Shown piece by piece: positions 19,346-62,322 of a stretch of 64,000 nucleotides of DNA. Under the pieces are notes generated by a model. The model made no database searches, was not told the DNA's origin, and worked only from the letters and a program-made list of their open reading frames with translations. Within the stretch, counting starts at the first letter, position 1. The number at the start of each line of letters is the position of its first letter. The position numbers and the translations under genes were made by a program. Origin of the DNA: Malacoraja senta (Eukaryota). The stretch lies in the NCBI GenBank assembly GCA_038087875.1, contig CM075988.1, positions 14,138,001-14,202,000 of the forward strand. Direction: 5' to 3'.

Positions 19346-19483
19346 TTGCCCCTGTCCCACTTAGGAAACCTGAACGGAAACCTCTGGTGACCTTGCGCCC
19401 CACCCAAGGTTTCCATGAGTCGCCAGAGGTTTTGGTCACTCGCCTGGAAAGCCTCCACCGAAGCGTGAGCTGCATCTACTGAC

Positions 19484-19505
19484 CAAAGACCCCACAGGAT
19501 CTTTG
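19484..19505. mobile_element. 22-bp palindromic micro-insertion with 8-bp TSD
   Basis: ctactgac[caaagaccccacaggatctttg]ctaccgac. Confidence 0.8.
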
Positions 19506-19872
19506 CTACCGACCGCACGCACACACACACACATCGCAAAGGTGGGGGCCAGGGACAGGGGAGGACCGCTGTCTGCGCGATGAAGAGGAAGGTAAACGGT
19601 TGCCACAGAGCACAGTAAGTCCCTTAGAGAGCGCGGGAGGGAGGGAGAGAAGGGGAAAGAAGGGGAGAGAGAAGGGGAGAGAGAAGGGGAGAGAGAAGGG
19701 GAGAGAGAAGGGGAAGAGAAGGGGAGAGAAGGGGAGAGAGAAGGGGGAGAAGAGGAGAAAATGGGGGAGATGGGGAGAGAAGGGAGGGGGGAGAAGGAGT
19801 GGAGAGTTTTAAGAAGTTTAATAAAGTTAGCGGGCATTTTACCTTCCGGCGGACCTTCTAGGTCCTGAAAAC

Positions 19873-19894
19873 CAAAGATCCTATAGGATCTTTG
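19873..19894. mobile_element. 22-bp perfect palindromic micro-insertion with 8-bp TSD
   Basis: ctgaaaac[caaagatcctataggatctttg]ctgaaaac; empty site at 60246-60253. Confidence 0.9.
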
Positions 19895-20744
19895 CTGAAA
19901 ACTCCAATGAGCCAATCAAAATGGCTGGTCAGCGAAGGAGATTGCCTTCGACTGCCTGTAAGTAAATAGCAACCCCACTCCACTGGCTTCGACCAAACTG
20001 CAACCTATTTTTAGTCGAGGTCGGTTTTGAATGTTTTGAAGTAATCGCAGGAACATAGAAGAAGCCTCGACTACGCGGAAACCACTTTCGACCATTAGGG
20101 AGACTGACAAAAACCTCCGGGAACCGCACGGAAACCTTGGGTGGGGTGCAAAGTCTCCAGAGGTTTCCGTTCAGGTTTCCTAAGTGGGACAGGGTCGTTA
20201 CACTCCTCCCATCGATGTCTCCCACTACTACCACCACCACGCCTACCCCGGCCCTCTGCTCTGTTAGGAGTAGGTTATAATAGTCAATTAACCTGACAGC
20301 CAGTGCATCTTCGAGATGTAGGAGGAAACCAGAGGTACAGTGGAGAAAGCCACACAGTCACAGAGTGAACCAGCAAATTGTACGCAGACAACAGCAGTAC
20401 TGAAGCCAGGTCACTGAAGCTGTGAAACAGCTTTACTCCAAAAAATCTTGTGAAAACTAAAAATGTTTGTCGAGACTGGTTCTTATTATAGTAGTGGTAG
20501 CATAGCAACACCACCGGCATGTACTAATAAAATACCCTAAGTCATTTCACAGGAAGGTAGCCAAACAAAAATCAATGTTGACACAGTGGAAAGGATATTA
20601 AGACAGAAGCAGGTTATAAAGGAATTTTCTGGAGGAAAGAGGCAGAGGCAGAAAGGTTAAGACAGAGAATTTCAGAGCTCAGGCAAAGGAAGGTCTGACA
20701 AACAAGAGTGGAGCAAATAAAGTCTGACAGATTGATTGAAAGAT

Positions 20745-35967: not shown

Positions 35968-36092
35968 GACCGGCGGCTGGAGTGGATGCCGGGGTCCTGA
36001 GCTGAGAGTAGATTACTCCAGCGTGGGGCCCAATTGGGAGCTCTCAGCGGCCCAGAGCCTCCGAATCGACCGCTACAAATCAACGAATCAAC

Positions 36093-36117
36093 CAAAGATA
36101 CTAGAGGAGTATCTTTG
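36093..36117. mobile_element. 25-bp palindromic micro-insertion with perfect 8-bp TSD
   Basis: gaatcaac[caaagatactagaggagtatctttg]gaatcaac. Confidence 0.85.
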
Positions 36118-37249
36118 GAATCAACGTACCAGTCAGTGCGCCCGCGGTTGGAAAGTCAGCGCCGCCGCTGCTGAAGCTAGCTAACGTGGAGGGAGAGTGA
36201 GGCAGCGTCAATTATGTGGGCTGAGCCTACGTAATTGACGCTCGCTCTTCCTCCACTGGGCTCAAGACACACCCCCTTGTGAGGCAGACGTGATCGCTGC
36301 CTCCCCTGGAGCTTTTTCATTGCAGTTTTATGAAGAGACCAGCGAGCACAAATTAAATATCTTTATATGTGAAATAAGTTACCTGGACTATGGAAGGTGA
36401 GGACATGCAATGATGGGGTTTACACACATTACATTGGTGACATACATAGAGATAGTAACAGGCACACGCTTATTGCCTGCACTCCATTCAGTTTCTGAGG
36501 GGTTGCGCAATCAAAGGAGAGGCTCAGCTCGCCGCTGCCTCACCTCTCATCTGTCCCTGTATTTGCAGCGGAGCTGCGATAATTTGGCGATTTTTACTAT
36601 AAAAAATTATTGGATTCATATAGAAATGACATTTATAACAGATCAGTGGAAAAATCTTTATATTTATTTTATTTTATTGTTATTTTTCTTTACTTTTCTT
36701 AACAGTTATTTTCATTGGGAGTATGACAGGTGAGGCTCTGCCTCCCCTGACCGCACGTCCCTGGTGCGCTCTGCTGTAAACCTAAGAACTTGATAGTCCT
36801 GTTCTCATCCCATGTTCTTTAACAGCTGCATTTCTTCTTTTAAAATTAACAGTTTTATACCACGTGCTTCTGAACATGAGGGTCAACAGAAATGACAAAC
36901 AGGACATTATGCTACTCGATAGGTTATATGTTCTCTTGGGTTACCTTAGTGAGAAATAGCAAATGCCCTGTGGCTTTGCTTGTGATGAACTGAAGGGCAT
37001 TCAGTTTTATTAAGGCAGGAACAAATCTTTAGAGAAAAGAAACCCAATTACTGCTGTAATACCTTCACGTTTTGCTTGAATATTCCTTTGTCCTCTAACC
37101 GTAATTCACCTGAAATAATATATTTTTAACTCCATCGTGCCCCGCATTTTAATTATTTTTGTGACGCTGCAGTCCAAAGTTTTATGTGAACTATAATTTT
37201 ACCAGCCATATTCTGTTTGGTGATGAATCCTCGATGAGGGCAACACATC

Positions 37250-53021: not shown

Positions 53022-54867
53022 TTTTGCAATTCATTGTTTACTATCATGTGGTATTCCGAATTCTGTTCCGTTTGGGAAAAATAACGTTGAGATCTTTGTT
53101 TCCTCTCGTTATGATAATTGAAAACTAATCCTCCATGCAACAACGATGATATTGCCTGTTGATTGCTCTTTCTGTGACACATAATGAACTACAATCTTTA
53201 GTGGACGTGCATACCACCATGCATCATACTCGGAGCCACTGTCATACCACTGTCCAATCAAAGGCAAGACTTTTAGTTCCCTTCAGTTAACAAGCAGGTA
53301 GTTAATATTGATCAAAATACCAAAATGATTTATTTCTGCTGACAGGTTTTGTGTAATACCCTGGGAAAATGTATGAACTCAGTTATATTCCATTAAAGAA
53401 AACAATGAAATTAGAGTTTCAACTGCAAACAGCACAGACTATTCAATTCACGCATCAAATTATTGCAGAATGAGCTGTTTGTTTTAAATAGGTCTTAAAC
53501 ATATTAATAAAAATACTTTAGTTAGTGTGATTAGTGCCTTTGATGTTTACCAAACCAAATATTAAACCCAAGAGCACTATTAACGTTCTGTTGGAGGATG
53601 GATGTCATTTCGGGACCTTAAAAGCAGACAGGATAAAAGAAGGTCATTCTGCCCAACATACCTACGCTGATTTTGTCCCTTAACACAACGGTCTGTAGCA
53701 CAGTTATTATTGAGGGGCTGGAACGCCAGAAGAAATGTTATGAATTGATTTTTCCCCATTTTTGACTTTATATAGAGCTAGAAATTGTTTTTAATTGGAA
53801 TAAAAATACATCTGTAAACAAGGTAGAAATGACATGGAAACAAAATCTGCTTGTAACTGCTCCGAGTAACCCACTCAGCTATAGTCCCTCTGCTCTAACC
53901 ATCCCTCCCACACGTGCAGTTCCTTGTTTCTCTATTTCCATGGATGCTGCCTGACCTGCTGAGTTTCCTGCATTTTCACTTTTTGCTCCAATTTCCACAG
54001 GTTTTAACATTTTCATGCCAAATCTATGGTATTTATTCATGATGAGAGTTATTTTTCAGCTTAAGTGGTGTTTTTACTCAGTACAGAAACCTGCCTTCCT
54101 TAGCTAGCGTGGATTATACCTTGGATATCATAAGGGTCTTTTAACAACGCTTTGATGTGCCCGGCAAGTCACGCATCATGGAATAGTTTAAAAAAGCGGG
54201 AACTTACTCTTAATGTAACATGTAATGGATATTTCATGCCTAGCTTGCCAAAGAAAACCATGCTACAAATATAAAATAATATTTTCTTCCTGAATTATTT
54301 TCTGGAATTTACCACAGAACCCCATCATCTCAAAAGCACAAAATAAAAAGACCACTCAAAAATCGTACACAGCCTAAATTAGAAAGATAAATGGAAATCA
54401 ATGTGATCAATACTCCCAGCAGAAGTCTGTACTGGTAAAAGCAATTCAACCCTCTCTCTTATGATTCTCTTGACAAAATCGTATTGCAGTCATTATTCCT
54501 GTGTATCCATTTCTCCCAGTTTAAATGCACCATGTTGAATTATTTTGGTGAATAGGGTTTAATGTGCAGGCTCAGATAACCAGTTGAAAAAAAAGTCAAT
54601 TGAATATTCCCCACACTTGGAAAACTTATCCCTGCTCAAAGGGTAAATTACCCTGAAGATGATCAATGAAGAAGTGTTCATTATTTTAGTGTTTCGGTAT
54701 TTTCCGTTAGGTATTACCAGTTCTTTCGGTTGAGTGCCTGCTATACATCAATGCCAAATATCAACTTCACACCATGACTCTCAAATTCCTCTGTTGGTTA
54801 TTTATGAAGTTGTCTTCCAAAAAGCATTGAAGTATATTACATTTAAAAAGTTCAGCATTTCTTATGT

Positions 54868-57536: not shown

Positions 57537-59666
57537 ACTTTAAATCTTTTCTTGTTTCAGGTGGAAGGAGAAGATTTCGTCATACGATTTCAAAGAATAA
57601 CCATTCATCCCTTATCTTGAATAACATGTATTATCTGCTCAATGTAATGTGATTGGTCACCGATTGCCTGCTATATTTTCCCACATTTCACAATAGATAA
57701 CTTCAAATGCTTGTTTTTGGCTTTATAGAAATGTAATTCATGAAATGCTTGGTTTGTTCACTTTATACATCACTCCCATGAGAGTGCTTTCTGTAAAAGG
57801 CACAGCGTCTGCTGAATGGGCACATACTGACTGAATTAACTACTTATCAGACGAACTATATGCCTAATGGTCAACACATTTGGCATAGACCTGGTATAAG
57901 CAATTGTAAATCTTTATAAATGGGTTTTTATGGCACCAGAGTGAGGTACAAAGTAACTTGACCATCAGACTTGTGAACTACCATAGAACAGTTCAGCCCA
58001 TGGCCCTTCGGCCCACAATATGTGTACCGGACACAATGCAAAGTTAAACTGATCTCCTCTGCCTGCACATGATCTATATCCCTCTGTGGGACATCCCCTC
58101 ATTAGTACGTGCAGATATAAACACAGTTCAAAGGCAAAACAAAGCTGCAATGTGTGCAGTTGCTGAACAGACAGACGTGAGTAAGACATTTCTGCATCTG
58201 CAGATGCTGAATATGAGGCACAAATATATCCCCAGGCATAACAGCCAGAGGCAGCAGATTTCACTGATGTGTAATATTAACAAATTACATAGGAAGCAAC
58301 ATGTCACAACATAATATTAATGACTGGTGCAATAATTGTTTAAAAGGTATCATGGCAAAGATGATTCTTCTGCTGCCAGAAACCATTATGCCTTGCAACC
58401 CTGAAGCTCCTGAGAATTCTGTGCTCTTCAGTCCAAACATCATTATTTTGCATCAGTTCACATAAATTCCTCATATATTACATGATATGTCTCCAAAAAT
58501 CAGAAATGTGATCAAAAGTATAATTATATGCCTTATTAAAGCAAACATTTTCTCCTGTACCTTGTTTCTTTCTCGACTAAGGCAGCACTTGCAGGTCATG
58601 TTTTTTGCCTCTTGCTTTAAACAGACATAAGCAGAAGGAATGGGCCATTCGGGGCAGTTTGCTGACTCTGCTAATCAATAAGATCATGGTTGATCTGTGG
58701 CTGGTGCCTGTAAACTGCATTTGGTCACCAGGGATCCCACTGCTTGGCATAGAATACAAGCAAATGGCAAAAAAAAAACTCCATCTAATTTTACTTCAAC
58801 TTTCCCTCCTTTCTACAATGAAAGTAAGTTGGTGCCATCTGGTATTGTTCAGATGGTGGCTGATGGAATCGGTATCAGTGGGTTAAACCAGCAATTTAGC
58901 CACACGGCTGTTCTGGATTAGACCCAAGATACTTTCACCCTTGCCCTTGTTCAAACTCTTTGATTCTCTTATTAAAAAATCTTACTTGGTTTGGAATATA
59001 ATCTGTGACTGAGTGCTCCCAACCCTCTGGTGTGAAGAGTTCCAACAATTCACAGCTTTCGGTGCTTAGAAACTCCTCTTAATCTTATTCATAAAACAGT
59101 AGACACTTACCCTGAGATCATTCCCTCAGTTTCAGATTATCCAGCAAGGGAAACATATGCTACACATTATGCTGTCAGATTACTTTTAAAATATTTATAA
59201 AATATTACCAGAACCACACCTGACCTGTGTAACACACAGCATAAAGTTGGATTCTGATTAAGTGAATCTCAGCCCGAGAGGCGAGGAGAATGGAAACAGT
59301 CTTGGTTATCTTATGGATGACTATCTTTTCGCAATAGTATGGGGAGATTAGCTCAATGACTTATATTCAAGCAAACCTGCCATCCCCGACCTGAATCGTG
59401 CTTTAACTGCTGTTGTGATTCCAGAAGCAATCATCATGAGACAGCCAGCAACAGATAAATGTTGCTTTTCCAAGCAATTTGTGTTAAGGTTGACATATAA
59501 AACAAGAACAGGATCAAAAGAACCTTTAGCAAATTTGCTACGCATGAATGTTGCATGAATGGAAATTGAGTATGAGTAAGAACTGAATTGATGAAATCAA
59601 ATAAATGAATGCAACAAAACCCAGCTAATCTGTGAACCTAAATAAGATATTACAGTTGATATCTTA

Positions 59667-60556
59667 AGGGGCTGTCCCACATGGGCGACCTAATCTGCGA
59701 TTTAAGAAGAGTGTCTTTGACCTTCAAGCTCGAGGGCACTTGCCTGGAAAGCCTCGAGCTGGATCGACCATCCGCGTTGAAACCGCGAGCTGGATCGACC
59801 GACTGCACACACACACACACACACATAAACACATCGCAGACGGGGGCCAGGGAAAGCGGGGGAGCGCTGTCTGAAATTCACACCCGCGATGAAGAGTAAG
59901 GTAAAATAGCTGCACAGTAACGGTAAGTCCTTTAGAGAGCGTGTGTGGGGGGGGGGGGGTAGAAGGGGAGAGAGGGGGAGAGAAGGGGAGAGAAGGGGAG
60001 AGAAGGGGAGAGAAGGGGAGAGAAGGGGAGAGAAGGGGAGAGAAGGGGAGAGAAGGGGAGAGAAGGGGAGAGAAGGGGAGAGAAGGGGAGAGAAGGGGAG
60101 AGAAGGGGAGAGAAGGGGAGAGAAGGGGAGAGAAGGGGAGAGAAGGGGAGAGAAGGGGGGGGGGGAGGAGAAGGAGTGGAGACATTTTTAAGAAGTATAA
60201 TAAAGTTTAGCGGGCATTTAACCTACGGGTTGGTTTTCCCTGGTCCTGAAAACTCCAATGAGCCAATCAAAATGCCCGGTCAGCGAAGGAGATTGCCTAT
60301 GGCTGCCTTCGACTGCCTGTAACTAAATAGCGACCCCACTCCACTGCACTAAGAGTTCAAAAGAACCATGCCGACCAAATTTTACTCGCGACCTAGCTGA
60401 GGCCACGAGTATTTGGGAACTTCCCTCAAGCATGAAGGAGAGTTTGAGCGAGCTCATAGGACCTCCTAGGACCACGTGTCGACCATGCTGCGAGTTTGAA
60501 GGTCGAAGACACTCTTCTAAACTCGCAGATTAGGTCGCCCATGTGGGACAGCCCCT
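59667..60556. mobile_element. Non-autonomous DNA transposon (MITE), ~66-bp TIRs, Harbinger-like (Kolobok not excluded)
   Basis: aggggctgtcccacatgggcgacctaatctgcga / tcgcagattaggtcgcccatgtgggacagcccct; flanks tta/taa, or TTAA on both sides if the termini are GGGG/CCCC. Confidence 0.88.
59961..60150. repeat. (AGAAGGGGAG)x19 tandem array inside the MITE
   Basis: 19 ten-base units, one variant (agagggggag), flanked by G runs. Confidence 0.95.
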
Positions 60557-62322
60557 TAACTATTCGTTACCCCATATCTGATTGAGTTGAGAGGTGGGAC
60601 AACGTAAAAATAATTGGAGACTGAATATATTAAAAAAAAGATGCTGGAAATCTGAAATAAAACAGAAAAATCTCAAAACACTTAGCCAGTTAAGCACCAT
60701 CTGTGCAAACAGAAACGTTGTTAAGGTTTCAGGTCAGAGATCCTTTGCGCGATATACAAAAGAAAGATAAAAAGAAAGAGAATTTTTCCGTTGCACAGGG
60801 GTGGCAGGAGGAATAGAATAGGAAAATAAAATATTTGCGATAGGGTGACACCAGGTCAAGTGGGTTAATGAAGTGGTATGATGATATTATACTTCTTTGT
60901 CTTTATTATGTGTTGCTAACAGCACTGGTGCGGAATAAGCCCAGTAAGTCAGATTGTAATAATAAAGGGAAAACTGAGCAAAAATTGCAGGTGGATAACT
61001 TAATGCCGAAATGACCATTTATCTCCTTTTGTCCCATCCATCCCTCTTGCCACCATCCTTGCAACTTAAATTTATATTTTTTAACTCTGACTCCTCATTT
61101 TGATGAAGGGTCTCCTACCTGAAATGTTAACTTTCCATCCCAACTGTTTCAAAGATCTCTTGTTTTATAGTGAAAGTAATTAGATTTTGAAAAAAAAAAT
61201 CCAATTCACATTCATGTATTTGTTATTCTTTTTTTACTGTTGGACTCAATGGAAACTAAATGTAGTAAATAATTTTGAACCCATTAAATGCTGTATTTTA
61301 CTGATATCAAATCATAATGATCCCAATCCTTCAGTCAGAAAACAATACTAACGTTTCTACTCTTTCCATTCACAACTGGTAGATCCATGTTTTTGACTTT
61401 ACCTGTCCTATCATCAAAAGGTACATGGATAGAGCAGGTTTAGAGGGATACGGACCCAACGCAGGCAGTTGGCACTAGTGTAGATGGGATACCCTGGTCG
61501 GCATGGGGAAGTTGGGCTGAAGGGCCTGTTTCCATGCTGTATGACTCACTAACACTTTTCTTAATTAATTGCTCTTCCTGCCTTCCTGTCACAAAACCTT
61601 TCCCTTTAACGTTTGTCTTTCCCATCTATGGACTTGAATGAAACCTGTTACAGCTCTAATATTTACAAGTTTCCATGTAAGGTTATCAACTTTAATCGTA
61701 AATTCCATTCTGCCTGATCTGCTCAGTATTTTCAACATTCTCTGTTTTAATTTCATATTGTTCCAGCTAATTATATTGCATCAATTGGATCACCACTGTA
61801 AAATTGCACTCAACACTTTGCGCAATTTACCTTGTTAATTTTTCATCTTTTAATATGTGGAAAACTGAAGCCCTTTTGTTTTGTTTTCACTAATTGTCAC
61901 TTAATGTGTCCATAATTCAGGGCCTAGGGATTATACTTTATCTTGATAAATGATAAACAGGCAATTTTCTGTGAATGATTCACTTAAAGCATGTTTCATA
62001 GTAGTTTCTGTTCTTGAATGTACAAAAATAAAATTCATGCCTACAGACTAGAAAGTTTACTTCATAATGAATCTCTGGCAAAATTAATCACAACCACAAA
62101 GGGTGGCATAATTTTAGCATGCTTCTGATTTACTACTAGACATCCATTACAACATTTAATGATTAATGGTGTGATGTGATATTCAATAGTGCTTTGCCTT
62201 AGGAGGGACAATAAATATTTCCCCCCTAATTAAAGGACCTAAAACAAAATGATAAGTTTACCTCAAATTGTATTTATTTGGGCCTCCTAAATAATATCCC
62301 AAAACATGAATTTTTCCAATAG

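Follow-up and report, generated by a model that had tools for sequence, protein, structure and literature searches.

The 22-bp palindrome at positions 19873-19894 of the window (the whole 64,000-nucleotide stretch of Malacoraja senta DNA analysed here) is very probably the excision scar of a vertebrate P-superfamily transposon, which later spread as a passenger of a host MITE. Scars and parent elements found in one genome yield cut positions for several end types without experiment. From them we draw a second, less secure proposal, that the transposase places its inner nick by a sequence landmark rather than at a fixed distance from the tip.

Structure of the focal insert, a probable scar

The 38-bp structure at 19865-19902, read directly, consists of two copies of CTGAAAAC bracketing CAAAGATCCTATAGGATCTTTG, and the insert proper occupies 19873-19894. 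The first-pass annotation had described this palindrome between two target-site duplications (TSDs) of 8 bp, together with an empty paralogous site in a sister MITE and two related inserts, and each of these observations holds. A single CTGAAAAC stands at 60246-60253, and the related inserts lie at 19484-19505 (TSD CTACTGAC versus CTACCGAC, one mismatch) and at 36093-36117 (TSD GAATCAAC, exact). The features, named according to the reading given above and assigned to neither strand, are as follows.

19350..20194: host MITE with 68-bp terminal inverted repeat (TIR) arms at 19350-19417 and 20127-20194, not a P element; its amplification copied both scars
19476..19513: second, decayed 22-bp scar at host site A, TSD CTACTGAC/CTACCGAC, in the same host MITE copy as the focal scar
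19865..19872: left 8-bp TSD CTGAAAAC, host site B (direct sequence)
19873..19894: focal 22-bp scar, the first 14 nt from each family-2 P end with a 6-nt overlap (parent ends; arm match 14+14)
19881..19886: CTATAG, putative junction and the longest microhomology that the two family-2 overhangs offer (enumeration of all joins)
19895..19902: right 8-bp TSD CTGAAAAC (direct sequence)
36085..36125: 25-bp family-A scar (17+10 nt, 2-nt overlap), TSD GAATCAAC (TSD and arm matching)
59664..60559: sister MITE without scars, about 77% identical over the aligned part (alignment)
59796..59803: probable empty paralogue of site A, a single CGACCGAC (by-eye match, outside the BLAST alignment)
60246..60253: site B paralogue lacking the insert, with one CTGAAAAC (sister MITE sequence)

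A generic scan for TSD-flanked short inserts with inverted ends returned four matches in the window, three of them being the focal insert and those at 19484 and 36093, and the same scan on 60 local shuffles returned a mean of 0.43 matches, none with CAAAGA ends. The fourth match (53785-53821) is AT-rich, has one TSD mismatch and lies inside the chance rate of the shuffles. Hairpin energies do no more than re-express the palindrome.

Passenger copies in a host MITE

Since the inserts at 19484 and 19873 share one host MITE copy, they were inherited with the MITE and are not fresh insertions at this locus. The insert at 36093 is likewise a passenger, in another repeat, and occupies the same site in two further loci (L078, L079). 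The TIRs of the two host MITEs (19350-20194 and 59664-60559) begin with (T/A)GCCCCTGTCCCAC or GGGGCTGTCCCAC, and the flanks are TAA/TTA, often differing between the two sides; these MITEs may resemble the PIF/Harbinger group. The SINE-like repeats of the window presumably resemble those of cartilaginous fishes.

The exact focal 22-mer is present in 224 copies in the 1.94-Gb genome, compared with none for the control. Among 37 exact copies examined (35 loci, contig C1), site A accounts for 13, site B for 20 and other places for 4. Locus L018 was grouped with site B by script on the likeness of its 8-mer, but its flanks are different and its right 8-mer is shifted by two bases. The concentration of 33 of the 37 copies at two fixed host sites is explained by amplification of a host subfamily that carried two scars. 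A search for alleles of site B gave six matches, all point mutants, and no other allele. Contigs from three organisms cover the scar-bearing site A, and the empty site-B join is present in runs X1 and X3; these contigs stand for the repeat family and not for this locus, and one run is possibly the source of the assembly. Together they indicate that the host subfamily is shared and old.

A genome-wide class of stubs

The pattern CAAAGAT...ATCTTTG with a short interior matches the genome 4,562 times, compared with 227 matches for the reversed control. Stubs of family A (CAAAGATACT) number 139 of 22-30 bp and 546 of 31-50 bp, and just 76 span 35-60 bp; those of family 2 (CAAAGATCCT) number 1,369 and 170 in the same order of size classes as family A, all these counts including passengers. 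In the fetched loci, 229 short inserts of 17-57 bp, pre-selected for at most one TSD mismatch (169 are exact), fall into at least 108 site clusters; the loci were picked by pattern, and the spread of lengths is therefore not unbiased. Confinement of the hits to fixed positions of host repeats, which had been named as grounds for doubt, thus applies to the exact 22-mers (33 of 37 at two positions) and not to the class.

Both TSDs are kept around the outer tips of both ends, and the stub arms match the ends of the parent elements described below. This bears out one of two earlier suggestions, that of a stereotyped relic which has lost its interior and kept its TIR tips. The AC ending earlier seen in three TSDs proves to be one part of a wider preference, palindromic over 81 sites, of the form (G/C)T-nnnn-A(C/G); T occupies the second position in 63 sites and A the seventh in 62. 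This preference fits the fly P target core GTCCGGAC given in PMC2577343.

One position in an abundant SINE-like repeat (GTTTAAAC/GTTTACAC) is a hot spot for P insertion, used independently by families A and 2 (L140, L180, L184, L189, L209, L232). A single such position holds four different scars and one full 395-bp element, and it is at paralogous SINE hot spots alone that empty, full and scarred versions are all seen, as the result of independent insertions. Several full elements and scars have GC/CpG-rich surroundings (flanks of L086, L088 and L089; L066, L123, L128), which recall the promoter bias of the fly element. A third end type (CAAAGATCATAGAGCGGAGC-like) has scars of its own, of at most 38 bp (L213, L214, L218, L219, L263). 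The terminal repeat of another P element also holds scars, of 17 bp and 34 bp (L092:7341-7400; L114/L166 at 1501), indicating that P ends themselves serve as targets.

Parent P elements and their transposase

Longer elements with the same termini, the lack of which would have spoken against a transposon family, were found as non-autonomous elements of about 400 bp and as P-transposase elements of 5-7.9 kb. A search with the GTP-binding domain of P transposase gave 150 scored matches among 312 candidates. In 8 of 20 transposase loci, each viewed over about 10 kb, an exact 8-bp TSD flanks paired CAAAGATACT ends (seven called by script, plus L085, previously removed by a low-complexity filter). 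These elements span 5.0-7.9 kb, typically about 7.5 kb, and their long alignments are 96.7-99.1% identical.

At L083, HTH, RNase H and GTP-binding domains are encoded in an open frame of 790 codons, and an upstream frame, which may be joined to it by splicing, encodes a THAP domain. PF05485, PF12017, PF21787, PF21788 and PF21789 score above their cut-offs in the parent elements. The Drosophila P transposase (PDB 6p5a) is the sole PDB match (E 1.8e-43); D223, D313 and E541 of the 790-aa frame align with its D230, D303 and E531, and 7 of 8 listed GTP-contact residues are identical, K400 being replaced by R. Among the 120 homologues listed of 442, the named ones are mollusc proteins labelled P transposase or hypothetical. 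Judged by their sequence, with THAP, HTH, split RNase H, GTP-binding insertion, DDE residues, TIRs and 8-bp TSD, the parent elements are members of the P superfamily. The CAAAGATCCTATAG ends of the focal scar, of family 2, are carried with 8-bp TSDs by non-autonomous elements of 377-415 bp.

Proposed depth of the inner cut

In intact ends, AAGAT is preceded by an outer stretch of 18, 19 or 20 nt whose last bases are AGC (or AAC). The depth of the boundary AGC^AAGAT below the tip is accordingly 18, 19 or 20 nt; it varies from end to end and can do so inside a single element. A 595-bp non-autonomous element has one 18-nt and one 20-nt end. Stubs hardly ever run past AGC into AAGA. With patterns that admitted inserts up to 50-60 bp, this was seen in none of at least 685 family-A stubs and in 3 of 1,539 family-2 stubs (at two sites), and in the fetched loci 2 of 216 arms cross into AAGA, both in one insert. 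For 36 of the 130 arms compared at 65 sites the boundary is the exact end point; 3 arms extend beyond it by one base and 1 by four. Stub end pairs reproduce the end pairs of the parents, namely 18+18, 18+20 and 19+20.

An origin of the stubs by loss of the interior unrelated to the transposase cut, through hairpin-promoted deletion between the TIRs or abortive gap repair, appears very improbable in the face of this ceiling. Such deletions have no reason to halt at one base, and the TIR extends beyond the boundary, yet the crossings are as few as given above, and the 18+18 blunt joins stop exactly at the boundary on both arms. The three family-2 matches that retain inner TIR do look like products of interior loss, and palindromic stubs erode at microhomologies, as is seen from the 38-, 33-, 27- and 21-bp alleles of one host site.

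Cleavage, the reading that we prefer, leaves the question of where the inner cut lies. A fixed ceiling of 17 nt, the Drosophila value, was rejected on account of 18+18 blunt joins, including those of A-type ends. Family-A blunt joins retain 18 nt on both arms at several sites, and a 17-nt cut would require a CG filler every time to give the A-type 18+18 joins. For family 2, 22 of 23 matches are of a 37-bp form (20+19 with a 2-nt overlap), found at about 14 independent sites, and one is a 35-bp form; the 36-bp 18+18 blunt form predicted by a fixed 18-nt cut is absent from the 23. It is the 37-mer class alone that discriminates, since blunt joining at a fixed 18 nt would also account for the 19+19 and 18+20 classes of 36-mer. 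The 38-mers at the CTGCAGAA site were considered as 20+20 joins and dropped; they can equally be read as the 33-mer with a CGGAG duplication and were therefore excluded from the argument on cut depth.

A subterminal RTAGWA motif, a putative THAP-binding site, occurs in 63 of 71 intact ends. It lies 26 (twice 27) or 38 nt inward of the boundary, and this distance is independent of the length of the outer part. Tip positions 3-9 agree at 5-6 of 7 with the bases immediately inward of the boundary, and AAGATA, the inner segment, repeats tip positions 3-8 almost perfectly. Because the boundary depth is not constant, not even between the ends of a single element, the position of the inner nick is likely set from within, and the repair products suggest that the looped-out segment tolerates changes of length.

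On balance, we favour the proposal that the P transposase nicks at AGC^AAGAT, 26 or 38 nt from the subterminal site, and not at a fixed 17 nt, leaving an overhang of 18, 19 or 20 nt whose length need not be equal at an element's two ends. Once freed, AAGATA would base-pair with positions 3-8 of the transferred-strand tip, in a fold-back helix like that of the fly structure, which would set the cut depth and leave loop length free. The thousands of stubs would then be natural cleavage records of a recently active family. If this is true, altering the outer segment should change the overhang, and shifting AAGAT should shift the nick.

Proposed joining of the overhangs and later history of the scars

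The focal scar may be accounted for in four steps. The anatomy of the site shows the first, in which an ancestral host MITE received a family-2 P element at CTGAAAAC, with duplication of 8 bp. In the second, for which we draw on Drosophila biochemistry and the arm-length ceiling, the transposase would cut the transferred strand at the tip and its partner at AGC^AAGAT, 19-20 nt further in, so that the outer TIR tips stay on the chromosome as 3' single-stranded overhangs. In the third, these overhangs would be end-joined at the self-complementary CTATAG, which gives 14+14-6 = 22 bp between the TSDs. The fourth, amplification of the host subfamily carrying two scars, is seen in the copies themselves. 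With regard to the third step, the 22 bp probably formed by direct joining at CTATAG; later collapse of a longer scar at the same hexamer is the lesser possibility, though one of appreciable weight.

When all joins of family-2 overhangs were enumerated, the focal 22-mer ranked first, with its 6-nt microhomology, and this rank accounts for its recurrence. Microhomology, blunt and templated-filler junctions are all present among the stubs. In L188 a 13-nt stretch of the filler repeats the stub's own TSD-TIR junction, and in L241 an 8-nt stretch repeats the stub's own flank; neither stretch is matched in any of 69 other flanks, and these two fillers point to repair in place. Most fillers of at least 5 nt gave no flank-specific template. 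L226, L187 and L243 were not counted as templated fillers, being rearrangements or tandem copies.

The CTGCAGAA host site has 56 alleles, including the 38-, 33-, 27- and 21-bp forms, and two alleles at a scar nested in an autonomous element are deletion alleles. Shorter alleles at one ancestral site indicate that scars erode later, and short lengths need not be those of primary products. With search patterns read from one side only at these three passenger sites, no full-element allele was found among 6 alleles at site B, 2 at the nested scar and 56 at the CTGCAGAA site.

It has also been suggested, in the first-pass annotation, that the stubs are self-mobilisable units made of two TIRs, which here would mean 22-38-bp two-tip units cut and pasted by P transposase. 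Some observations are those that a mobile unit would give: 4 of the 37 copies of the focal 22-mer lie away from the two host sites, at 4 unrelated ones, the 37-mer occupies about 14 sites, and the target preference and SINE hot spots are common to stubs and full elements. Nonetheless, we regard this as very improbable. The recurrent forms are favoured microhomology joins, for which recurrence requires no mobility, whereas a 32-mer with a one-off junction (58 copies) lies at a single ancestral site in 30 of 30 copies examined, with no spread to unrelated sites. The stubs lack both the inner TIR half with its AAGAT and the subterminal RTAGWA, own-flank fillers exist, and a staggered cut of 18-20 nt at both ends would be impossible on a 22-bp unit.

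Comparison with known systems

An origin of the stubs from hAT or another superfamily with 8-bp TSDs, the other assignment that the first-pass annotation had left standing beside P, is hardly credible. P is not the only superfamily with 8-bp TSDs and CA...TG ends, and no autonomous family-2 copy was found, so that the enzyme of the focal scar is deduced from shared end design. That same design (CAAAGAT tip, inner AAGATAGACCACTC, the same subterminal spacing) nevertheless encloses a P transposase, and hAT excision would leave no TIR tips behind, since it takes the element ends away and makes its hairpins on the flanking DNA.

TIR-only miniature elements are known in other groups. MADE1 of Hsmar1 has two TIRs head to head with a TSD, and MADE1-type elements keep complete TIRs, including transposase-binding sites, and form uniform amplified families. 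In contrast, what the stubs retain is confined to the part outside the cut, and their junctions are variable. For annotation, such stubs are to be read as past excisions rather than as tiny MITE families.

The excision-footprint mechanism is already known from flies. In Drosophila, P transposase cuts the non-transferred strand 17 bp inside and leaves 3' overhangs on the donor, according to the review PMC7776569, and repair of the donor gives a TSD, two joined tips and a second TSD, with microhomology, blunt and templated junctions (Chan, Yu and McVey 2010, PMC2895639, Table 1). The relic that the first-pass annotation had called unusual is a P-element end-joining footprint of this known kind. 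The skate stubs share with those Drosophila products the 8-bp TSDs around joined tips, the classes of junction and a hard ceiling on arm length. However, the Drosophila products come from the laboratory and have a fixed 17-nt overhang, whereas the skate stubs are natural, germline-fixed and number in the thousands; their ceilings are 18, 19 or 20 nt by end, and many have been amplified as passengers. They also preserve, in fossil form, a history of how long 3' overhangs were end-joined in the germline.

With Drosophila P itself (PMC7776569, PDB 6p5a), the skate elements share domain order, catalytic DDE and an 8-bp TSD with GT..AC bias. A 12-bp subterminal asymmetry is common to both, with 9 and 21 bp in the fly and 26 and 38 bp from boundary to motif here. 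The same review states that the fold-back helix is required for transposition, and the match between the bases at the inner side of the boundary and tip positions 3-9 fits it. Among vertebrate elements, zebrafish Pdre2/zfTHAP9 (PMC10983969) is likewise P-like, with an 8-bp TSD and an excision-competent transposase, but has a different, 13-bp TIR and about 50 relics; the available main-text parts of that paper mention neither a cleavage position nor natural scars. In the accessible parts of the literature, including PMC3698922 and with most subscription journals outside the coverage, we found no natural vertebrate P scars and no cut depth other than 17 nt. What is new here is likely to be the parent elements, together with a variable, landmark-set cut depth in a vertebrate genome.

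The parent elements are unlike fly P in that their TIR starts with CAAAGAT, AAGATA forms an inner copy, their length is about 7.5 kb and older scars lie inside them. As multi-copy vertebrate P elements 97-99% alike, some with long open frames, they go beyond the zebrafish relics and the domesticated THAP9. The older scars within autonomous copies have the TSD GTCGGAAT, with others at GGTGCAAT and GGTTACAC (L081-L100); examples are L083:2282-2317 and one near position 9034 of L083. Their nesting indicates that the recent lineage descends from a copy that was hit and then vacated by its relatives. Small unplaced contigs (G000) contain dozens of near-identical partial transposase matches, with frames of 393 and 155 codons, which suggests that a P fragment has been amplified there inside a larger repeated unit.
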